Of a DNA stretch of 64,000 bases, positions 4,243-29,785 are shown in pieces. Position numbers and translations under genes: made by a program. The notes beneath the pieces were generated by a model, which was not told where the DNA came from, did no database searches, and saw only the letters and a list, made by a program, of their open reading frames with translations. Source of the stretch: Microbotryum violaceum (taxonomy: Eukaryota); contig CDLV01000006.1 in assembly GCA_001244265.2 (NCBI GenBank), positions 2,604,001 through 2,668,000 of the forward strand. Direction: 5' to 3'. Each line of letters opens with the position of its first letter. Position 1 is the first letter of the stretch.

Positions 4243-6086
4243 ATGGGTCACGAACACCTCCATCGAACAATATGGAACGTAAGTACCTTCGCTGCGTCCT
4301 CCTACATCCGGACCGTCCCCCGGAGACTCGGACGCTTGAGACATGACATGCACGAATTCGAACACGTCGATTGGAACTGACGACGACCCGGTGGCTTGCC
4401 TGCTTAATTCGGCTTCGGCTTTGTCACCTGCAGCACGAAGACATTGGCAGGACCGGCTATTGGGGGTGAGTGGCGCAGTAGGACTTGCGATGGGTACAAG
4501 GGGCTGATCCTATGTTGACCACCGCAGAGCTGCTACGTCCTCGATTGACTGGTACGTCTTCTCGGCGTCTTCTCGGCGTAACGACAGCCAGGCCACACCC
4601 CGCTCCCCGCTCAGGTTCAGGCTTGGTCGACCATCGAGGACCGGAGCGCGTGCCGAGCGAGCCTAGCCGAGCCGAGGCCAGATGCGCTAGTACCTCGATT
4701 CCTCGAAGGTGCTATAGTGGGCGCCAGAATCTTTCCAAACCGGCGAAGAAGATCATCTCGTGCTTCACGACGTCGGGGTGGGTTCCCCAAAACTCACTTC
4801 ACCCCCCCCCCCCCCCCCCCATCTCTACTACCTTTCCCCACCGTCACTTTCTCACTGCCACAATGACAGGTGCGAAGCCAACTTCATCCACACACGCTAC
4901 ATCGCCGAACTGTACAACACCATCTCCAACACGTTCATGATCTTTGCCGGATTTTATGGGGTCTACAAGGCGCTACAACACCGTCTACCTAAGCGGATCT
5001 TGCTCAGCTACCTCAGTCTGTCCATCATCGGACTTGGAAGTGCCATGTTCCACACCGTAAGTTTGTTCCACTGACACCTCAGCATCTCGAAGAACTCACC
5101 AACAACCAGCCCCCCCACAGACACTCCAATACGCGTGGCAACTCGGCGACGAATTGCCCATGATCTACACCTCGACCTTGATCGCCTGGCTCGTCTTTGA
5201 CATCACCCCTCTCAGCCAGAAAACGCCTTGGTTACCGCCCCTTTGCGTGGTCATCTTCAACGTCACGTTTACGCTCATGTATCTTTTCTACCCCAAGTGA
5301 GTTGGGGGCAGCCTGAAAAATGCACACCTCGAGGGGAGCTGACCCAAAGTGCTCTCGCTAGTCCTGTATTCCACCAAGTTGCTTGTAAGTCAAAGTCTTT
5401 CCCTGCCGGTGGGGGCCAGTCGCAGCCGAGGACTGAATGTCGATCCTTTTCATTCTCAGATGGGATTTTGGTCGTCTCGATGACGCTCCGAGGCGCCTAT
5501 TTGATCCTGTACAAGATGAAGGACAACACCTTGGCCCGCCAAGTGAAGCACCTTCAAGCCTGGGGAACCGCATCATTCGGTGAGTCCACCCTCTCCTTCT
5601 AAACCTGCAGCGCTTCTCGCTAGGCAAAGTGGGCAGAGGACTGATCTACAATGACCTTGAATGAAAAAGTGTTCGCTTTCGCGATCTGGAACATCGACAA
5701 CATCTTTTGCGACTCGACGTGGGCGCCGTTGAAGCAGCGCGTCGGCGCACCTTGGAACGTCTTGCTCGAGGGTCATAGTTGGGTGAGTATATCAGCCCGG
5801 GTCCCGCTCTTTTGAACAAAGGCGAAGCCTCAATTCTGACAGCTTCTTACCTCGATACTCTTAACAGTGGCACATCTTCACCGGTCTCGGCGGTTACTCC
5901 ATCATCGGCGCCTTGACGATGGTCACCCTTTCTTTGCGCGACGATCCCAAGCACTACCGCCTCAACTTCAAGTACGGTTGTTTGGCCTGGGTCTCGAGAA
6001 CGGCCAAAGGGTGGGAGGTGTTGGAGGCAGGTAAGAAAGGGACGGAGAGGAGTCGGTTGCTTAGGAATGGGAGGAGGGACGATTGA
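4243..6086 (+). CDS. Alkaline ceramidase (YPC1/YDC1/ACER3 family), many small exons
   Basis: Spliced product has GYWG..SSIDWCEANF..IAELYNTISN, GLGSAMFHTTL, QLGDELPM, WNIDNIFC and LLEGHSWWHIFTG. TGA at 6084-6086. Confidence 0.92.
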
Positions 6087-6273: not shown

Positions 6274-6461
6274 TCAATACGCCCCTCGTTGAGCCTGCCC
6301 CACCCCGCCTTCCCCTTCACCGACCTCCCCCGTGATCGAACGAGACCAATACTGTCCCCCATAAATCCCTTCCGAAGCGGGGTAATACGACATACCCTGG
6401 TGATACTGCACCTGATGCGTCCCCATCGGTGTCGGTGCGTTAGGATTGGGGTAAGCGTACA

Positions 6462-6493
<32 letters not shown>

Positions 6494-8685
6494 AATTGAA
6501 GTTGGTGTTGTTGCGCAGCGAGGTAATAAGGATCATATACCGTCTGAGCTTGATAATAAGCCAGGTTCGAACCATCATCTGCGTAATAAGGACTTGCCCT
6601 ATTCGCGTAGTTATGAATAGGGTACGTTGACGTCATCACGGGTGAACGACTTGATTCTCTTGATGAAGAAGAGGGGTAAATCGTCTGTGCGGCCCAACCT
6701 TGTACGGGGTATTGATAAGGTGGCAATTGTCGCGCGTTCGTACCTTGCCCTATACTTGCGCCGGAACGTGTGACCGAATAATTCGCTGGAGGCGCTTTAA
6801 TGTCCAAGGCTTTGGAATGCCTGGCTGGAGCGAAGAACGGCGAAGGTCGACCCGCCTCTGTTATCATATGTTGATGATGAGGTGGGGGAGGCGTCGCCGT
6901 TCCGTGCGAAAGGATAGGTGAATAGCCTTCGTTTGAAGTTGTGGAACCGTAGTAGGTCGTTGGGGTGGGCTGATGCGGGTAGTAAGGGAGGTAGAGGGAG
7001 GCTTGGGGTTGGGGGTAGAAATGGGAAGGGAGGGGAGCGACGGCGATGGGGGAGAGGGGCGCTGAGGGAGGGGTCGCGAGACGTTGGATGTGAGGTGAAA
7101 TATTGCGCAACACGGGGTGAGTGGGGATGGCCGAGTATTGCGGTGGGGGTGCGACGATCGACACTGGCGGTTCGGGTGCTGCGGGTTGAGTAGGCAGCGA
7201 TACGGGGACCGAGGTTGGTGTCGGCGTAGGTGTCGACAGCGGCTCTTGCGATGTCGATTGTGAGATCGGTACTGCAGAAGTGGACACTTTGGCGGAATCA
7301 GACGTCGGTGTCGGTGTCGGTGTCGTTGGCTTGGGCACCTTGACCACAACAGGAAGACTCGAAGAGCTCGGCAATCGAACGACGCTCTGCGCTCGACCTT
7401 CGCCGAACAAGCGATCCTCCACCGCAGCAGGTCGAGTCGTCGTCGGCATTGGAGTAGGGACCGTAGTTGGAGACTTTTTATTCGTACTCGACGCCAAAGG
7501 GGTCGCGGAGTTCGAAGCCGGTGTAACGTGGACGTTGGGCGCAGCCTTGGGCATACGATAGCGGTAGTGAGGATGGAAAGGCAGGTGCGCAAAACGAGGG
7601 TTGATCGAGCCGGGGACAGGCGCAGGTGAAGGTCCGACTCTTGGACCAGCTCGGATTAAGGATTGCCTTTGTTGTCGCAAGAGCTGATTCCGGACGGGTG
7701 GAGCATTGCGATACGCTGCTGGGCCGGTCGGGATCGAAGGTGCTGTCGTCGAGATCGAGGTCGAAACAGATACTGGTGTTGGTCCCTTGGTCTGGACGGG
7801 GGTGAAAGCGTTCGGTACGGCGTTCTCGACCTGTGTTGAAGTCTCGCCAACCGCAGACTGGTCCGTCACCTCGGGCTCGTCCAGCCCCACAGCGGTGACG
7901 AATGCGGCACTGCCCTTGATCCTCATCTCCTGCTTCTCGCTTGGCTGCTCGCCCTTGGTGACTCCCTCCTTTCTCTTCTTATTCCTCTCCTTTCTCTTTT
8001 GCTTCCTCAACTCCATCATCCTTTCATACCCCTGCGGTTCCCTCATCTTCAACAGCAAGTCCCTCTGCGCCTTCTTGGACAGAATTTTGCCTTCGCCTTG
8101 CGTAAGGTGTGCCTCCCCAGCCACGATCTGCTCCAACGTAGGGGTGGCATCGAGTTGGTCCAAAGAGAGTTGCTCGAATTGTAGCGTCGGTAATGGGAGC
8201 GATGTTTGGGCCGATTCGGAAGCGACGAGTTGGTCGTCCCAGCTCGGGGTGAGTGGAGGTGGGGGGATCACCGAGTCGGCTTTATCAGCCACCAGGGTCG
8301 ACGTGGACGGGTTAGCAGTTGGAACGGTTGGTTTTCGCTCCTTGTTGAATTTTTTGCGAGGCTTCTTGGGGACTGATGGGGTGGGGTGATTCTCCTTGGT
8401 CTCTTGCTCCAATGGTCGCTCGCTCGGAGTCGGCGTTGAAGTCGAAGTTGAGGGGGAGGTCGAAGCCCCGGTTTGATCAGGATTGACTTTGGCAGCAGGC
8501 TTGCGACGTCGAGCCGGTTTGGTAGATTTGACCTTGAGGGTGGTCGAGTCTAACCCAGTGGACGGTGCCGAGGTGGATGAGGCCATCGTGGTAGAAGCAG
8601 CAGGGGCAGCAGGGGCAACGGAGGAAGTGGAGGAAGTGGAGGAAGTGGAGGGAGCGAGGTGGATATTGTTGGACGAGTCGGCCAT
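6274..8685 (-). CDS. Hypothetical low-complexity S/T/P-rich protein with a Lys/Arg-rich patch and a Q/Y-rich C-terminus
   Basis: ~800-codon uninterrupted ORF; first ATG at 8685 (MADSSNN); no domain recognised. Confidence 0.75.
6463..6492. repeat. (CTG)10 microsatellite encoding poly-Gln on the - strand
   Basis: Perfect CTG run inside the 6274-8685 ORF. Confidence 0.9.
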
Positions 8686-9284
8686 TGTGGAGTGGGGAGT
8701 AGCGAACGTCAATGATCAGGTTTGGAAAGAAAAGTAGATTCTGAGTGGTTGAGAAAGAACACGGGGTCAGCACCAGTGCGACCTGTGTGTATGCTTTCTC
8801 GCACGGTCTCGAGGAGGGCGGAACGGGTGGCGCGTGACTTGGGGGGGAAATCGAGACCGCTTGCGAAGCTCGCTTTTGAATATCCCAAGTCAGGTGAACG
8901 TGCACAGCTGGCTTGCGACCGGGAGCTGTGAGGAAGCGTAGCAACTCACACGATCGTACAGCGAAAGTAGACGTCGATTCGAAGAAAGGATCGTCAGAAA
9001 GAGCGGGTACAAGAGGTGCGGATGGGAGCGGAAGCGCGAGGAAGGTCAGAACGGTAATAGGTCGGTTGGAATCTGAACCATGTCCGGTGGTGACGCGGTG
9101 ACGCAGGACGAGCTTTCAGAGGTGCTGCCCGCGCTGGCAAGCGCTGCTGGCACAGGCACCAAAGCGCACCAGCGTCACGAGCGGGCCCCGCAGGAGACGC
9201 GTCGAGGCATGCGCGCCCGGACGGAATCGCGCATTAGCAACGCTGCAAAGTAATCCGTCCCTAACGCCGAATTGAGTATGGCCT

Positions 9285-9356
9285 ACTTTTTCTTCTTTCC
9301 CTCCTCTCTCTCTCTCTCTTTCTCTCTCTTTCTTTCTCTCTCTTTCTCTCTCTTTC
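9285..9356 (+). promoter_or_regulatory. ~70-nt pure pyrimidine (CT-rich) tract, probable fungal CT-box promoter element
   Basis: Only C/T on the + strand. Lies upstream of the structured region and divergent from the 8685 gene. Promoter role is inferred. Confidence 0.45.
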
Positions 9357-9541
9357 AGTTCTCACTTCCGATCGCGTCCCTTCTACCCGCGCATCGTTAC
9401 AACAATGCAATGTCGTCGCTCGATTTCTGATCAGCTTCTTCACATTCCTTACGCATCGCTGGCCTATACCACGCCTTGTGAGCTCCCGCTCAGTAGCTCA
9501 GCAACCCTTCGCAACCAGTCCACACGTCGGCCGTCCCGTTC

Positions 9542-10343
9542 CTCCTGTGAACGAACGTCCCTACTCTCTCTACACACACACACATACACCATGACAGTCA
9601 GGTCAACTCGCTATCCCTTTTTTGTCTAGAAAAAGGGAATCAACCTAGGCGATGGTACCGTTACGTTCGTGGGAGATACAACATCTCGAACCTCTCGGTC
9701 AACGTTGGAAGGGGGTTTGCGAACAGTTGAAGATCAGAGTCGACCTCTTTCGGGCTCTGCGCGTGCGGGTCTTTTGATGTCGTGTCTTTGTCTCGATCGG
9801 CCTTGGGGCTCTGTCATGGTCTTTGTTGGTGGGTTTTTGGGGCATCCCTTGGCTATGACCTGGTCGGGTTCTTCTTTTGAGCCCTGAGAAGAGGGTGGAA
9901 AGCCCCTTGTGGGCGACTACACTCCCGCTTCAGTTCTCGGAAGAGTAAAGGCCCGGTCAGGTTCAAGGATCATCTCGGAATCTGACTCGGCGGGATTAGA
10001 TGGAGTCTGGCTTGATCTTTGACGGCTCAACATTGGGAGGCTCACTCGAAGGGAGCACCGGCGGATTCGATTCGACTTTTCCTCTTTCGCCTTTTTCTGA
10101 CAATTTGACCGCTAAAAAGGTTTGGATCGGTTCCTCGTTTCGATTCACGTCGAGGTGAGGATCTCGTTGTCTAACAGAGTGGTCATTCGAATACATCTTG
10201 GGATCTTTCTGATCTCGGGAAGGCAGGGCGGGGGGGAAGGCAATATGATCAGTCTCTCGGGATTGTTCGTCTTCTTTTTCCTCTTTTTCACGTCAACTGT
10301 TTGAACCTTTTCGGATTCAGTGACCTAGTTTTTCGGACAAACA
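9542..10343 (+). ncRNA. Candidate large structured non-coding RNA, identity unknown
   Basis: No credible ORF. Many helices with G-U pairs on the + strand: 9542-9557/9659-9675, 9614-9622/9630-9638, 9720-9730/10293-10303, 9858-9870/9950-9962, 10132-10143/10150-10161 and 10196-10205/10211-10220. Confidence 0.55.
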
Positions 10344-10837
10344 CTTTCTTGTAATAATACTCTGTCTAGTTGCAAGGTGTGATCAATCCATTCTTTCGCA
10401 CCTGTTTCATAGGAGCGAGCTCACGCTCAGGAGATTAAGGAGTAGTAGCCCGGATTAGTAGCGTATAAGGCGCCTCCTGACCTGTAAATTTTTCAGCAAG
10501 GCCCAAACACAATTCGATTCAACTGACATCGATTCTCTACTCTGCTTTGTTATCCTTTGCTATCTCGGCTTGTTGGGAATTTTCTTATGAATTCCGACTT
10601 TTCCATCGACGCGTAACGTTCGTTTCAGCGAGGACGATCAACTCGCTTCAGAGCTCAGAGCGCTCAGAGCGTGCTCGGCTTAGCTCGGCACCTCCTCCGA
10701 CTCTGCGCCGGGTCCACGAGGGTCCACGAGCCCGAGCCGAAAAAGGGGGGGGGGGGGGGACGGGAGATCTCCTCTCGGACTCTTTTTCACCTCCGCACCG
10801 TCTGCCATTTCACCCCCTACTCCGCTGCTTCCCAGCA

Positions 10838-13800
10838 ATGCCCCGATCAGGCGCCTCCACACCTCGTTCAACACCTTCGACCACTCGAGCAAACACCTTC
10901 ACCCAACCCAACAACGGAGGAACGGGACATTCCACACCGACCGAAACGACGTCATTACTCGATTCGGAAGAAGGTACCGTAAGAGCTTCGCGAAGAACTT
11001 ATGGCGGTGAAGGGATCGGTGGTGGTGGTGGTGGTGGTGGTGGTGGTGGACCGGTTACGTTCGAAGGGTTGGACGATGAAGAGGATGGGAGTGATTACCC
11101 TACTTTGCATGCTGGATTGTCGGGGAGAGAGGGAGGAGGGGGGTACGGGACTAGCGGAGGCGGCAGTCATGGACAGGGCAGAACAGCAGGTAAGTTTTGC
11201 ATGGGAGGGATCGATGGGAGGGGGAACTGAGATTGTATTCGTCGGGGTGAAATAGCCTTCGCTACCTTACCGACCAAACTAGCTCGCTCCGCTTCGGTCG
11301 CGAGGAAAGTCGAACGACGAGAACGGCGCAAGACCCAATGGAAAGTGTGGAGCAACAGGGCGAGGTATTACGTTCCCGTACGTGCACAACCACTTCAACT
11401 CCATCTTTGTTTTGGTGTGTGTCAAGGCTGAGGAGTAGAAAATACAGGTCTTGGCGTGGTTGCCTGATTATTCGTTCAAGGCCTTTACGGGTGACGTTAC
11501 GGCGGCTTTTACGGTGAGCCACAGAACTGCAGCTTATTCTCAGCTTTTTCGAGAAACAAGACACCTGATCAATTTTTAAACGGAGGGTACAGATGACATC
11601 GTTGATAGTTCCTCAATCCATGTCGTATTCGAGTAATCTGGTCAACAGTGATCCGGTCAGGTGAGGTCGAACTTCCGGTCGCGCCTGAGGAGAGCGCGGC
11701 TGTGCTGACTTTCATGTGGGGGTGCATCGGAATTGTCCTTCTAACAGTGGGTTATTGGGGGCTTCCATACCGCCCATGATATGTAAGTTGGTAGCATGAT
11801 CAGATTCGTTGTCATCTCTTCGACTGACACTCGCCATCCGCTGGCAGATTCGGTCCTCGGCACCTGTCGACAATTATCGGTCGGACCCGAAGCGGCGCTG
11901 TCCTTGATCATGGGCGAATCGATTTCCAAGATCATTGACGCCGAGACGCACGCCCATGGTGGTATGAGCAATAGTGCAAAGATGCAGTTGACATTCACGA
12001 TTACTTCGGTCATCGTCTTTCAGGCGGGCTTGATCACGTTTGCGTGAGTACTTGCGATGTGGAACAAAGTGGAAGGTGGTGTGCTGATGTTGGGCTTGTC
12101 TGTTGGTATGAATAGGCTGGGGATGCTGCGGTTAGGGTTCATCGATGCGGTTCTATCACGGGTGAGTATAGGGTTAATGTGAGTTTGACATTCAGCTAAC
12201 TCGCATCGATTGCGTCCTACTCAGGCCCTTCTCCGAGGCTTCATCACCGCCGTCGGGATCGTCATCTTCGTCGCGCAACTCATACCCATTCTCGGCCTCG
12301 AGCGTTATACCAAACAAGGAGCCGATACGACGCCGTCCAAATTGATGCTTGTGATAGAGCACGTGGACAAGGCGCACAAGTTGACGTTGATCGTCTCGTG
12401 CGTCGCGTTGCTCGTGCTGGTTTGGGCGAAGAGCTTCAAGGCAAGATTAGCGAAGCGGAGAGGGTATGGATTCTTGGCTTATGTGCCGGAGGTGTTGGTG
12501 GTGGTGATACTTTCGACGGGTCAGTTACTCGTATGGACCATATTTCGTCGCTAGACCTGTACTGACGCGCAGTCCGCATCCCAAAGTCTTCTCTGCTACT
12601 TTTGACTGGCAAGCCAAAGGCCTCTCCGTACTCGGCAAAGTCTCGATTGGGGATGTTCGGATCCTCCTTCCTTCTAGCAGCATCTTGGCGCGCAAGTACT
12701 CGTCGCAATGCATCGGAACGGCCAGCGTGCTCGCCATACTCGGTTTCTTGGATTCGATCGTTGGTGCCAAGGACAGCGCGGCCAAGTTTGATTACCCTAT
12801 TTCGTCAGTGCTAACCTCGGACAAAATTGTTTCTGGAAGTCGTCAAGCTTGTTAGCTGAAATTCTCGGCGAGTCTAAATGTCGTCAGACCCAATCGGGAA
12901 CTCGTCGCCATAGGAGCCGCCAACCTCGTCGCTTCGTTCGTCTCCGGCGCTCTACCAGGATACGGAAGCATTACACGCAGCCGACTGGCCGGAGCGACGG
13001 GGGCGACGACGCAGATGACCTCTTTGTTGACGGGTGTCTTTGTGCTGCTCGTTTCGTTCTTCTTACTCGGGTTCTTGTACGCTTTGCCAAAGTGTATCTT
13101 GGCCGTCATCATTTGCGTCGTCGTCTTTTCGATCCTTGCGGAGGCTCCTCATGATGTCATGGTCAGTGTTTCCTACTCGGCGTCGTACCACTATTCTCTT
13201 GACAGGATGCTCACCCCAGCCTTGAACTTTGTTAACGCAGTTCTTCTGGCGTATGCGAGCCTGGGTCGACCTGAGCCTGATGGCTATGACGTTCTTCCTC
13301 TCCCTCTTCATCAGCGTCGAAATAGGCATCATAGTATCCGTCGCGTTCTCCATGCTCCTTTGCATCAAACACTCCTCCGCCATGCGTATCAAAATCCTCG
13401 GTCGAGTACCCGGCACATCCTTTTACGAACCTTTGGAAGACGATGACGATGATGGACTTTTCCCGAGCGAAGAGATTCCCGGGATTTTGATCGTGAGGTT
13501 CAGGGACGCGTCGTTGACGTTTGCGAATGCGGGGGCGTTAAAGGAGCGGTTGAGGAGATTGGAAAGGTACGGTCAGGGGAGGCATCATCCTTCCGAGACG
13601 CCGAGTAGGGCTGAGGCTTCGTGAGTCCTCCCTTCCGTGGCTTTACATTAGGAAGGATTATGCATTGCTCATCTCGGTTAACCCTGATGTACAGCGTCAT
13701 CATATTTCACCTCGTCGACGTCGAAGATATCGACGCCTCCGCCCTTCAACTCATCTACGAACTCGTCGAAGCTTACGTATCCCGATCCGTTCTCGTCTAC

Positions 13801-13947
13801 TGGACCCAAATACAACCCATACCTTTGGCAAGGTTGAGGAAGGCAGGCGTATTGGAAATGTCGGGTGGGGAAGCGCATGTACAACCGAATGTACAGATGG
13901 CGTTGCAGGTTTTGGAACAGAGCGTGATTAGTGCGCAGTCGTTTTAG
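10838..13947 (+). CDS. SLC26/SulP sulfate/anion transporter with C-terminal STAS domain (YPR003C-like)
   Basis: Motifs RARYYVP, IVPQSMSYS, LGTCRQLSVGPEAALSL, RELVAIGAAN, PGYGSITRSR and FANAGALKERLRRLE, plus STAS DVEDIDASA. More than 10 introns. Confidence 0.9.
11018..11049. repeat. (GGT)n microsatellite encoding poly-Gly
   Basis: GGT run in the first exon of the transporter. Confidence 0.85.
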
Positions 13948-14133
13948 GTGGGTTAGCCGGGCCGAAGGGGGGGGGGGGATAATTTGGGTTTGGCAAGGGA
14001 ATTCGTTCGCGCTCGTTCGTTCGGTTTGGTGGTTACTACTATAAGAGCTTTTGCAATAGAGATTGGTTCGTTCAGGCTTTTCGGCGTTGTTCCCCCCCCC
14101 CGCCCCCTTATGCTGCATTTGCAACTGATGGTC

Positions 14134-14193
14134 TATAATGTCGGTACATATAATGTCGGTACATATAATGTCGGTACATATAATGTCGGTACA
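14134..14193. repeat. Perfect 15-bp tandem repeat x4 (TATAATGTCGGTACA)
   Basis: Four identical units between two convergent 3' ends. Confidence 0.95.
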
Positions 14194-14260
14194 AAGAAGA
14201 AAACAAAACGAATTCAACGTGGAAGGAAGTGAGAATCTACTGTACACTATCCCGAGCATC

Positions 14261-15443: not shown

Positions 15444-16492
15444 GGCCACAGTATGAACTGCGAAGGCGTGCAAGCGGGGCTGGGTGATGGTTGCCGAGAC
15501 ACAAAGGATCGGGCTGGTACAGGCGTTTTCGGACGAGCTTGACGAAATTTGCTGCGAGGCCGTATGAGCGCTCTGTCACGCAGATACGCCTGATGAAAGC
15601 TCGCGAATGAGTAAAATGGAGTAAAGAGTCCAAAGAGCAACTATGAGCAAGTCGTGTCTGGGAGGCACACAAAGACCCCTCAGGCCGGGAAGAGCTGCCG
15701 AGCCGTTCGCGCCTTTGTCTTCCAGCAAGCGCGCCTTGTCGCCTTTGTTCTGCGGCACCGATCGTCTCTCTCCACAAAGTTAAACTCGTCCGCTTTTCCA
15801 TCGGAAATTGACTGTGGCATCTCGCTCTAACAACTGCTCAATGAATGAAAAGGAGATTATCTCCCTGCGATCTGTAAGAGCATGGGTAGGGCAGCTGTGT
15901 TTCTTGGGATTTGAATAAAGTTGCCCAACGCCGGCTCCCGCTTTGGGCCTGGCTTGCGCGCGCTAGTCCTCATTCTGAGTCAGACGTCGGTCGATGATAT
16001 CGATACGTGATCCGATCGCCGACACGATGATCAGAAGCAGGCCCGTTATATCCGACACCTTGTGGAAAATGAAAGAAAAACATGATAAGAAACACATGTT
16101 ATTCATGAAATCAGTATCTAGTTTCTAGGACGTCGCATGAGAAACTCGCAAGCTCACTTGGGCGATACGATATATAGGAGGTTTTTTTTTTTCTCCTTAG
16201 GAATGAATAAAGTCGACATGACCGAGCTTGACACGCAATGAGCCTCGGGTAATTGATTGATTATGTAATGCCTTACCAGGCCAAAGAGTGAATGAAGAGC
16301 TATTCAAGAATTACTCTGTATCACTACTGAACTCTAGAACTAATCATGTCATATAACATAACCAATGTCATTGGCTGCGAGGACGATTCAAACTGGACGC
16401 ATATATCCAGCTTCACCAACGTCATCGGCCGGCTGACCGCGCTCGGCGGTCGGGCTCAGCTTCTGTCCATCCAGCACCCTGCTCATCCCGAT

Positions 16493-17653
16493 ATGGCGAC
16501 CCGTCCACATTCCATCATTATCTTGAATGACTATCAAAATGCATCCTCGACCGCCGACTGGTCCCAGATTCCCAAGGACGCGGAAATGAAAGTGATGAAC
16601 ACGGCGATCGCCCGATGAACACGGCGATCGCCCCAGACGACCTCGTCGAGACGTTGAGGCCCTACACCATCATTCACGCAATGCGTAAGAGAATCAAATT
16701 TCCTAGATCGGTTTTGGAACACCTTCCGAATCTCAAGTTCATCTCCACAACTGGGATGCGAAAGTGAGCATCGGGATGCTCATCCAGTAAGGGCTGGCAG
16801 GACCCCCACATGGGACTTACACTGCACGAGCTGTGACCCCTCTTGGCAGCCGAGGCATCGACTTACAAGCCTGTGAGGATTTAGGCATAACTGTCAGTGG
16901 TACGACCGCGAACGGGAACACCGCTTCGGGAACGGTCGAACAAACATGGGCCTTGATCCTGGCGCTCTCGCGGCGGATCGTGGTTGAACACGTCAACTTG
17001 AAGACCCAAGTTCCGAGCTGGCAGACCGGTGTCGCCACTGCTTTATCGGGCAAGACGCTGGGACTTATAGGTCTGGGGAGAATTGGAAAAGCTGTGGCGA
17101 ACGTCGCCAAGGCGTTCGGGATGGAGGTTGTAGGGTGGAGCCCGAATCTGAATGAAGAGAGGGCCAAGGAAGCTGGCGTTGAGCTCGCCTCGTCGTTGGG
17201 AGGTTTATTGACGCGCAGTGACGTCGTATCAATCCACATCATCTCGTCCGATTTGACAAAGGATCTCATTTCTCACCACCAATTGGAGATGATGAAGAAG
17301 ACGGCGATCTTGGTCAACACCTCGAGGGGTCCGATCGTGAATGAGCAAGCTTTGCTTCGGGGATTGCAAGAGGGGACGATTGCTGGGGCTGGATTGGACG
17401 TTTTCAACGAGGAACCCTTGCCGATATCGCATCCGTTCAGGAAACTCGAAAATGTTGTCCTTTCCCCACATATGGGCTACGTTGACGACACGACGATGAA
17501 CGTGTTCTGGTGAGCCTGGTCGGTCGTTAGATACTTAGAAACGGGCTGACGTGTTTTCAAGTACGAAATAGGGAGCAAACACCGGAAAATATCGCGGCAT
17601 TTCTCAACAACAAGCCCGTGCGAGTCATGCAGACCGGCTCAGATGCTTTTTAA
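16493..17653 (+). pseudogene. D-isomer-specific 2-hydroxyacid dehydrogenase, frameshifted in exon 1 as assembled
   Basis: ILNDYQ N-terminus, STTGMRNRGID, GLIGLGRIG, VNTSRG, LDVFNEEP and SPHMGY. A 20-bp tandem duplication at 16594-16633 causes a stop at 16616-16618. Confidence 0.75.
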
Positions 17654-27515: not shown

Positions 27516-29331
27516 ATGTCAGCCAAGTACGATCACGAAGCTGTCAAGGACGTCGCGGACCCTTCGTCCACGCAGACGACCATCTCGCCCATCACCGGCC
27601 AACCGATTGTCGTTCGTCGTCTGCCCAGCGTCAACGACGTCGATCGAATCCTGTACAAGTCCCACGTTGCTCATTTGAAATGGCGTCAAGTGCCCTTGAG
27701 CAAAAGGATCGAGTTGGTCAAGGCAGGAATTACGCATCTCTCGTCCCGTGCAACCGAGCTGGCGCAGGAGATTACGGAGCAGATGGGTCGACCTATTAGA
27801 TACACCGAAGGGGAGATCAAGACGTTTGAGGATAGGGCCAATTGGTTGGTGGGCAAGGCAGAGAGCGCGCTCAAGGATGAAAATGTGGATGAGGGACGTC
27901 CGGAGGGGATCAAGCGAACGATAAGGAGAGCCCCTGTCGGAATTAGTGAGTCCGCCGGAGGAATTGGAAGGCTGCTCATACAGCGGTGCATAAGTAGACT
28001 GACGCCATGTGCTTACGTACAGCCTTCCTGATTGGTGCTTGGAACTTCCCTTGTCAGTCTTGTTGGCGGGTGTCCCGTGTGGCGTGACCCCCACATCGTG
28101 CTAAATTGTGATCCCCTTGACACCAAACGCAGACATGATCCAGGTCAATGCCTTGATCCCTTCCCTTCTCGCCGGTAACTCGGTAATCCTCAAACCCTCT
28201 CCTCAGACGCCCTTGACCTCGGAACGCGTCGTCGAAGCCTTTACCGCCGCCGGCCTTCCTTCGGACCTTCTTCAGTGCCTTCATCTCAACCCCATCCAAA
28301 TGGACATGGTTGTCGCACACCCCCTGGTTCCCTTTGTCAGCTTCACGGGGAGTGTCGAGAACGGTCGAAAGGTTGAGATCGCCGCTGCGTCCAAGGTTCG
28401 ACAGGGGTTCAAGATGGTCGGCCTCGAGCTGGGTGGCAAGGATGCTGCCTACGTCAGGGAAGGTAGGTGAAGATCGAGTGCTCAATTTCGAATGTTCGGC
28501 ATTGAACTCATGGTATGTTGCATCTACAGACTCGGATCCCAAGTACGCCGCAGAGAACATCGTCGATGGTGCCATGTTCAATTCCGGCCAATCGTGCTGC
28601 GCCGTCGAGCGCGTGTACGTTCACGAAAAGGTCTATGACGCTTTCGTCGAGGAGTGCGTCAAGGTTGTCAAGGTAGGTACCATAAACCAACGTTTGGGCG
28701 TTCTTGTACTAATATGATGTCCTGCTTTGAACAGGGGTACGTCCTCGGTGACCCCCGAGAACAAGCGACAACTCTCGGACCGGTCGTCTCGCTCCGATCC
28801 GCCGCGGCCATTCGATCGCACATCGCTGAAGCCGTTCAAATGGGTGCAAAGGCCCTTATCCCCGATTCTCACTTCCCCGAGGCCAAGGAGGGTACGACCT
28901 ACGTTGCCCCTCAAGTGCTCGTCGACGTCAACCATTCGATGAAGGTTATGATGGAGGAGACCTTCGGACCCGTGATGGGCATCATGAAGGTGAGTTGTGC
29001 CCTAAGTGTCCAAGCTGCTTTTAAACAATCAAGAACTGAATCCGACGACTTTTTTCTCCCTCAGGTCTCATCGGACGCAGAAGCCCTCAAACTCATCAAC
29101 GAATCGCCCTACGGTCTCACCGGCTCCATTTGGACCAAATCCGAAGCGGCCTTTGAAGCGCTCGTCGACCACGTCGAAACAGGTACTGTGTTCATGAACC
29201 GATGTGATTACTTGGATCCGGCTTTGCCTTGGACCGGTGTGAAGAATTCGGGCCGAGGTATCAGTTTGTCAAGGTATGGTTTTGATGCGGTCACTAGGGC
29301 TAAAAGTGTGCATGTTAGGCCTTTGGCTTAG
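27516..29331 (+). CDS. Aldehyde dehydrogenase (ALDH superfamily)
   Basis: WNFP, LKPSPQTP, FTGS, LELGGKD, FNSGQSCCA, EETFGP and YGLTGS. Confidence 0.93.
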
Positions 29332-29785
29332 GTGGGGTCGATAGAGCTTCTTTATCAATGCATTGTTCACTATAACAACCCTATGACGGTTCTAAATTGG
29401 GCCTCAGGCTCGGAGCGATCGTTCGGAGCGTCAAACAGCACGGATCGCCCAAGGCACGGACGCGGTCGATGCCGCGTGCGTGACGGCCGGCCGCCTCAGG
29501 CCATATGCCAGCACGATGGTTCGACAGACGGGCAGGTAGTTCCTCGTCGCTCGCATGTGGGGGTACGGGCGTATCTTGTTAGGTACGGTGTCCCTTTGGA
29601 ATCTCTACACTTGCTCCCTGCAGCTCTGCCATCTAACATCCTCAGCACAGCTTCCCAGCACAGCTGCGACATCAGTGAGATCTTCCGGCTGCTCAGGAGA
29701 CTGATCTTCAGCTGAAACAGCTCCTATCTAATATCCGTCCATACCGCCCCGTCATGCAGTGAGCGACTCTCGACCAAACACCCCA

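Follow-up and report, generated by a model that had tools for sequence, protein, structure and literature searches.

The stretch of Microbotryum violaceum DNA analysed here (64,000 nt, hereafter the window) is eukaryotic and contains many introns. The region of interest, positions 9542-10343, is located in a 2.1-kb gap that separates an SLC26-family permease gene from a divergent open reading frame, and it lies on the same strand as the permease gene, 0.5-1.3 kb 5′ of it (Table 1). The permease gene places the window in an anther-smut fungus of the genus Microbotryum: an exon translation of 90 residues (12889-13158) agrees at every residue (100% identity) with annotated SLC26 proteins of Microbotryum silenes-dioicae and M. 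saponariae, and at 99% with the SLC26 protein of M. intermedium. We place its start codon at 10838 because the translation from that ATG (MPRSGASTPRSTPSTT...) agrees with the N-termini of three annotated Microbotryum proteins, to which this N-terminal sequence is common. A preliminary description of the locus, made from the sequence without database searches, had noted a pure CT tract upstream, and we indeed find one at 9286-9356. This is the sole pure pyrimidine or purine tract of at least 40 nt in the window, and it is likely to be a promoter-proximal pyrimidine tract. Two homopolymer runs were also seen, the G15 run about 80 nt 5′ of the SLC26 ATG and a C19 run farther upstream (4802-4820).

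Table 1. Features of the SLC26 locus and its upstream region (positions in the window).
Feature	Positions	Strand	Basis or remark
Open frame of 813 codons, divergent from SLC26	6274-8715	-	No Pfam match
Pure C/T tract, 71 nt	9286-9356	+	About 90 nt 5′ of the start of the relative's RNA contig (9445)
5′ part of the upstream transcript	9445-9682	+	Contains the stem-loop domain at 9542-9675, with stems of 12 and 10 bp
Rod, 5′ arm	9683-9905	+	Fold; homologous to the 3′ arm in reverse complement
Rod, apical loop CUUGU	9906-9910	+	Fold
Rod, 3′ arm	9911-10127	+	Fold; apex bridged by the X10 contig (9771-10202)
13-bp hairpin just 3′ of the rod	10132-10161	+	MFE fold; also in the centroids of two fold contexts
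10-bp hairpin	10196-10220	+	MFE fold
Stretch between contig ends and ATG (leader or intergenic)	10203-10837	+	G15 run at 10745-10759; aligns poorly to the relative's contig
SLC26 permease gene (Sulfate_transp and STAS domains)	10838-13920	+	Pfam and spliced contig; many GT..AG introns

The preliminary description had proposed that 9542-10343 encodes a multibranched structured RNA rich in G-U pairs, and the sequences and coordinates that it quoted are correct. The minimum free energy (MFE) fold of the entire candidate on the + strand has an energy of -294.2 kcal/mol and contains four of the five pairings that had been named, namely 9542-9557 with 9659-9675, 9858-9870 with 9950-9962, and the hairpins at 10132-10161 and 10196-10220. 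The fifth, a long-range helix joining 9720-9730 to 10293-10303, does not occur in the fold, in which position 9720 pairs with 10089. Nor is the architecture multibranched: the core is one unbranched rod-like hairpin, spanning 445 nt of the + strand (9683-10127), with 170 bp and an energy of -185.1 kcal/mol when the rod is folded alone. Its pairs comprise 126 Watson-Crick and 44 G-U pairs (26% G-U), and they are arranged in 33 helices of 1-14 bp that are parted by small bulges and internal loops, with a mean pair probability of 0.87. An identical rod appears in the MFE and centroid structures of three fold contexts. By comparison, the centroid obtained for 9445-10202 lacks the stem-loop domain at 9542-9675. 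Two partners are possible for the base of the 5′ arm (9696-9730), 10077-10111 within the rod or 10293-10325 downstream, and only the first of these is used in the MFE fold. An alternative conformation, in which 9696-9730 would pair with 10293-10325, is conceivable.

Comparing folding energies with those of shuffled sequences on both strands had been suggested as a check on the proposed structure, and the outcome is only partly favourable. On the + strand the candidate has z = -3.70, with none of 100 dinucleotide shuffles folding as well (-3.85 in a separate run), and on the minus strand z = +1.76, with 58 of 60 shuffles folding as well (+1.38 in a separate run). However, when real sequence serves as the background, the + strand value is no more than a moderate outlier: 24 other window-strands of 802 nt have a mean z of 0.08 (sd 1.37), the lowest being -3.03. 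Sub-windows of 400 nt on the + strand of the candidate give z-scores of -0.26, 0.04, -1.32, -2.47, -0.56 and -0.54, the best of which is inside the range of 128 background window-strands of this length (mean 0.50, sd 1.26, lowest -2.85). The energy z-score by itself is too weak to act as the main statistic. One of the control windows, 16201-17002 (802 nt), has low z-scores on both strands, -2.45 (+) and -3.03 (-), values suggestive of either low-complexity pairing or an inverted repeat in the DNA at that site.

We therefore replaced the MFE z-score with the length of the longest unbranched rod as the main statistic. Among 150 dinucleotide shuffles of 9628-10202, the longest rod has a mean of 30 bp (sd 11), a maximum of 71 bp and a span of at most 197 nt, versus 170 bp in the native sequence. 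We also folded both strands of 159 real windows of 575 nt each (318 folds). The longest rod in these folds has a mean of 29 bp (sd 14), and the rod of the candidate is the extreme of this entire set, the next best having 84 bp. On its minus strand, the 575-nt window that holds the candidate yields a longest rod of just 17 bp. Judged by rod length, the pairing is real and far beyond chance. The runner-up in the scan, at 28801-29375 (+), extends over 218 nt and is half the size of the candidate's rod.

The two arms of the rod can also be compared as sequences. When the 5′ arm is aligned with the reverse complement of the 3′ arm, with all mismatches scored alike, 140 identities and 53 mismatches are found in 193 aligned columns (about 73% identity), in addition to 59 gap columns. 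This alignment scores 33, compared with 8.8 ± 3.5 for 200 shuffles. Because the score exceeds even the highest among the shuffles (19), the arms are truly homologous, and they constitute an old, diverged inverted repeat. A simple Watson-Crick repeat finder had missed this repeat. The mismatches that have accumulated between the arms are strikingly asymmetric, since 34 of the 36 transition mismatches are of the type that yields a G-U pair on the + strand and only two are of the type that yields an A-C mismatch. The ratio differs from 1:1 with a binomial p of 1.9e-8, and from the 2.6:1 obtained with the A-C share of 0.28 that the composition of the arms produces in shuffled alignments with p = 9.6e-4. 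Under the three usable alignment scoring schemes the ratio is 34:2, 34:2 and 21:1; two further schemes were ignored because their degenerate alignments consist nearly or entirely of gaps. The earlier argument that dependence on G-U pairs favours selection on an RNA thus holds quantitatively, and the bias in the arm sequences points to the maintenance of pairing in + strand RNA. A mutation bias between strands throughout the transcript was considered as a source of the G-U excess and rejected. The rod has a G+T fraction of 0.60 and the 248 nt that follow it 0.59, compared with 0.42 for the 5′ flank and 0.51 for 10376-10837, and such local enrichment argues against a transcript-wide bias.

Sixteen sequencing runs contain part of 8600-11600, and four of them were compared over 8000-14200. 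One run (X7) derives from a relative that is about 90% identical to the window. A single contig of 3766 nt from this run is colinear with 9445-10375 (89 substitutions and 30 gap letters) and, after a poorly alignable stretch in which 253 nt following 10375 and 110 nt following 10720 remain unaligned, goes on to follow the SLC26 exons, whose joints have GT..AG ends on the + strand. Because this contig is spliced at GT..AG joints, X7 is RNA, and the + strand is transcribed from at least as far 5′ as 9445. Transcription would begin near this position, just 3′ of the CT tract. The hairpin and SLC26 appear to be joined in a single transcript in the relative, with the reservation that a contig can merge overlapping RNAs. 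A second run (X2), a very small assembly that is identical to the window and that we guess to be RNA, covers 9628-9868 and 9904-10202 at a depth of about 33 and does not cover the SLC26 coding exons. A third (X10), labelled as a metatranscriptome, provides one contig of 430 letters that corresponds to 9771-10202 with 14 differences. Both arms of the rod are therefore on one RNA, since this contig spans the apex. Neither X2 nor X10 carries strand information, and contigs do not reveal starts, ends or levels. The fourth run (X1) is low-depth DNA, as introns are included in its coverage, at a depth of 2-4, and its lack of cover over 9656-10276 was not used as evidence.

Hence, the rod and some 55-75 nt on each side have been assembled from RNA in three studies, one of which (X2) is RNA only by our guess. 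Such contigs support the earlier view that the region holds a large + strand non-coding element of a kind that gene annotation would miss. The element is probably not a free-standing gene, since it is contiguous with the SLC26 mRNA in the relative. The X2 and X10 contigs both end at 10202 without a loose end, within the 5′ arm of the 10196-10220 hairpin, and this coincidence weakly hints at a possible 3′ end or processing site. Reading the sequence around 10202 revealed neither a splice donor nor a clear poly(A) signal to account for these contig ends.

The candidate region is non-coding, in agreement with the preliminary description, which had seen no credible ORF. All eight + strand ATGs in 9445-10837 open short reading frames, the longest being 52, 41 and 36 codons, and in the relative 1-nt deletions at 9734 and 10092 fall inside two of the candidate's three longest + strand ORFs. 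None of the six open frames of the candidate matches Pfam, and a search of predicted proteins 36-116 residues long returned no homologue of the longest ATG-started ORF on the minus strand (66 codons). The region also failed to resemble known RNA families, as had been noted on the basis of diagnostic boxes. A search with Rfam 15 yielded no match at gathering score in the whole window, with U1, U2, U3, SRP, RNase P/MRP, snR30 and riboswitches included, and only four weak matches were recorded in 9000-11000 (E values of 1.8-8.8, with scores far under gathering).

Between-species comparison gives a partial picture of how the structure has evolved. We examined the first 40 of the 181 listed differences from the relative, which cover 9486-9884 and leave its 3′ arm outside the set. 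In the 5′ arm within this interval, 20 of 29 substitutions are at paired sites (76% expected, p = 0.39), and nine of these 20 keep the pair without a change in the partner, where the observed spectrum leads to an expectation of 41% (p = 0.45). The changes in the 5′ arm include G>A at 9698, 9719 and 9829, which in the rod are opposite 10109, 10090 and 9986, respectively. In the 5′ stem-loop domain, for which both sides of the helices are visible, two of four paired-site substitutions break the pair and no compensation is seen; for example, an A>T change at 9555 breaks one pair, and no compensating change is present among the differences listed. Three differences in X10 were examined (9798, 9811 and 9838), and all of them keep pairs and are shared with the relative. 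The 5′ arm has diverged from the relative by about 14%, versus about 5% for the coding exons. As far as the 5′ arm and the 5′ domain are concerned, this partial pattern looks neutral, and it neither supports nor excludes compensation. A block of 44 nt (9634-9677), which includes the 3′ strand of the 9542-9675 stem, shows no listed difference from the relative, while the surrounding leader is about 10% different. Metagenome contigs contained no match to 9654-9673, a 20-nt block conserved in the relative, and a metagenome search with the SLC26 protein confirmed no locus, as all 131 pattern matches were rejected by tblastn.

What lies upstream of SLC26 is a strand-specific hairpin without coding capacity that is present in RNA assemblies and contiguous with spliced SLC26 RNA in a relative. 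The locus is probably a regulatory leader or hairpin RNA rather than a telomerase RNA. As to its role, we tentatively favour control of the permease gene in cis by a hairpin-bearing upstream transcript or 5′-extended leader, a reading that is quite possible though still somewhat doubtful. The non-coding unit would start near 9445, after the CT tract, and run co-oriented toward SLC26. Transcripts from this distal start would carry the -185 kcal/mol hairpin together with the eight upstream ATGs, by which a scanning ribosome might be barred from the permease start codon, and transcription across the proximal promoter may dampen it by promoter interference. Either a 5′-extended 'undecoded' isoform or interference by a tandem lncRNA would be the outcome. 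The piece with the hairpin (approximately 9628-10202) could accumulate owing to the resistance of double-stranded RNA to nucleases, or because many transcripts end near 10202. The unit may also respond to sulfur supply.

Two known types of arrangement resemble the one proposed. In budding yeast, NDC80-LUTI is a 5′-extended undecoded isoform, and LUTIs rely on upstream ORFs. Similarly, a distal start at the SLC26 locus would give an isoform with a long leader and upstream ATGs that is putatively untranslated. Unlike the uORF-based LUTIs, the leader here contains a 170-bp hairpin, and both isoform toggling and repression in cis are only proposed. The other type consists of tandem units in which an upstream lncRNA interferes with an mRNA, as described for prt-pho1, prt2-pho84 and nc-tgp1-tgp1 in S. 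pombe and SRG1-SER3 in S. cerevisiae (PMC7470944). As in those yeast units, a co-oriented non-coding unit is situated just 5′ of a nutrient transporter gene, and there are signs that some RNAs read through into the gene (X7) and that shorter ones end upstream of it (X2 and X10). However, the yeast units are not described as acting via a long hairpin, at least in the part of that account drawn upon here, whereas pairing at the SLC26 locus looks selected. Upstream non-coding transcription is an established means of controlling nutrient-uptake genes in yeast, operating via the act of transcription. If there is indeed selection on pairing, with the pairing kept on one strand while the arms have diverged by about a quarter, then RNA structure would be a part of the control in Microbotryum. 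The locus would in addition furnish an actual example of a natural long-hairpin RNA from a fungus equipped with Dicer and Argonaute. The question lends itself to direct testing, because the locus is small, occurs once in the window and adjoins an easily assayed gene.

A serious alternative explanation, although one that we consider somewhat unlikely, is that the rod is a neutral relic. In that case a foldback-type insertion or an inverted duplication of considerable age would be sitting in a transcribed promoter or leader, where its hairpin would have no function and its G-U excess would have arisen from local strand-biased mutation. The between-species pattern described above, being indistinguishable from neutral, is consistent with this explanation, as is the faster divergence of the 5′ arm relative to the exons. 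A RIP-like change of TCG to TTG has been reported in Microbotryum, and the trinucleotide content of the rod fits its direction: relative to the window average TTG is twice as frequent and CAA half as frequent, and the T is in TtG context for eight of the 44 T residues in G-T pairs versus two of the 48 in A-T pairs (p = 0.044). Nevertheless, with only eight of these 44 in that context and with TCG not depleted in the rod (15 observed versus 12.2 expected), the RIP-like change could have made at most a partial contribution to the G-U excess. The 34:2 ratio is likewise far from what composition would produce, and neither the 5′ flank nor 10376-10837, which belong to that transcript too, shows the G+T enrichment. 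Moreover, in a neutral repeat, divergence of about 27% between the arms, added to the 59 gap columns, should have abolished a 170-bp rod with so high a pair probability. With respect to a MITE or foldback transposon, no second copy of the arms exists in the window, where the longest match to the rod outside the rod itself is 13 nt, and no target-site duplication or flanking direct repeat was found around the rod.

Control in cis does not account for every property of the rod, because 170 bp is far beyond what is needed to block scanning and the retention of the whole rod is left unexplained. The upkeep of so long a duplex leaves room for a substrate of Dicer or another RNase III. The transcribed inverted repeat could therefore be an hpRNA or miRNA-like precursor whose small RNAs act in trans, with its position next to SLC26 being incidental or with cleavage also ending the upstream transcript, although on balance we find this unlikely. 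As in plant and Drosophila hpRNAs, an inverted repeat that is hundreds of nucleotides long produces one fold-back RNA, as judged from the X10 (9771-10202) and X7 (9445-10375) contigs that span the apex. The apparent selection on pairing extends over the full length of the rod, which is more in keeping with a substrate made of double-stranded RNA than with a structure that only blocks scanning. However, known hpRNAs are near-perfect duplexes that yield siRNAs. The rod departs from such a duplex, and with no helix exceeding 14 bp, 44 of 170 pairs being G-U, and a bulge or loop every few pairs it should be a poor substrate for Dicer. Substrates of Rnt1-type RNase III enzymes have an AGNN tetraloop capping the stem, and this tetraloop is absent from the rod, whose apical loop is CUUGU. 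The long precursor also accumulates. Small RNAs from the hairpin that would target SLC26 or other genes of the window were considered and rejected, as the longest match of 13 nt is at chance level. The machinery required is available in the genus, since M. lychnidis-dioicae is described as having one Dicer, two Argonautes and one RdRP, all of which are expressed (PMC4469406). Long hairpin RNAs derived from inverted repeats are the subject of LIRBase (PMC8728187). A re-analysis of fungal hairpin small RNAs, as far as its account is used here, presents the well-supported examples as short, which is unlike the rod, and it states that the natural action of long hairpin RNAs in organisms still needs exploration (PMC9757828).

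A more ambitious version would combine control of SLC26 with double-stranded RNA binding. The rod might represent a natural long hairpin RNA of a basidiomycete, abundant, selected for pairing and shared across Microbotryum, which acts as a double-stranded RNA device. When bound by Dicer, another RNase III or a double-stranded RNA-binding protein, it would decide between termination and read-through and thereby set permease expression, perhaps feeding small RNAs as well. We regard this combination as decidedly unlikely. If it were true, the locus would be a hairpin-based switch for a nutrient gene, for which there is no described counterpart in fungi. No report of such an RNA in Microbotryum was found in the limited literature collection that we searched.

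It is also conceivable, though highly improbable, that the region gives rise to a free-standing structured RNA acting in trans, such as the scaffold of a ribonucleoprotein or the telomerase RNA that the preliminary description had named as a candidate. The size of the RNA, its abundance in RNA assemblies and its lack of an ORF would suit such a role. Against it are the absence of Rfam matches at gathering score, the contiguity with an mRNA in the relative and the plain rod shape, since RNAs of this kind should have a core of several domains. For telomerase RNA in particular, the fold comprises the rod and small flanking hairpins, with neither a template-pseudoknot core nor a CR4/5-like three-way-junction domain in an analysis that covered nested pairing. 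The telomerase RNA of Ustilago maydis is positioned 3′ of its ORF. It is described as being processed from an mRNA (PMC9564094), and the candidate resembles it in that a long non-coding RNA is physically linked to a protein-coding transcript. Unlike the U. maydis RNA, the candidate is 5′ of the ORF, has no TTAGGG template and forms a rod in place of a pseudoknot and template core. The template of a telomerase RNA comprises about 1.5 telomere repeats and is complementary to the repeat of the organism. The scaffold ends of M. lychnidis-dioicae are reported to carry TTAGGG (PMC4469406), and no permutation of CCCTAA of at least 8 nt is present on either strand of 8500-11500. Because the template is missing, the proposal of a telomerase RNA is close to being refuted. 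Telomere-repeat 7-mers, of which the whole window has 25, occur in 8500-11500 only at 8550 and 9259, both outside the transcript. Elsewhere, within the SLC26 gene, the minus strand carries a 10-nt telomere-repeat-like string (AACCCTAACC, 12130-12139), and we estimate that about 0.7 such 10-mers would be expected by chance per window.
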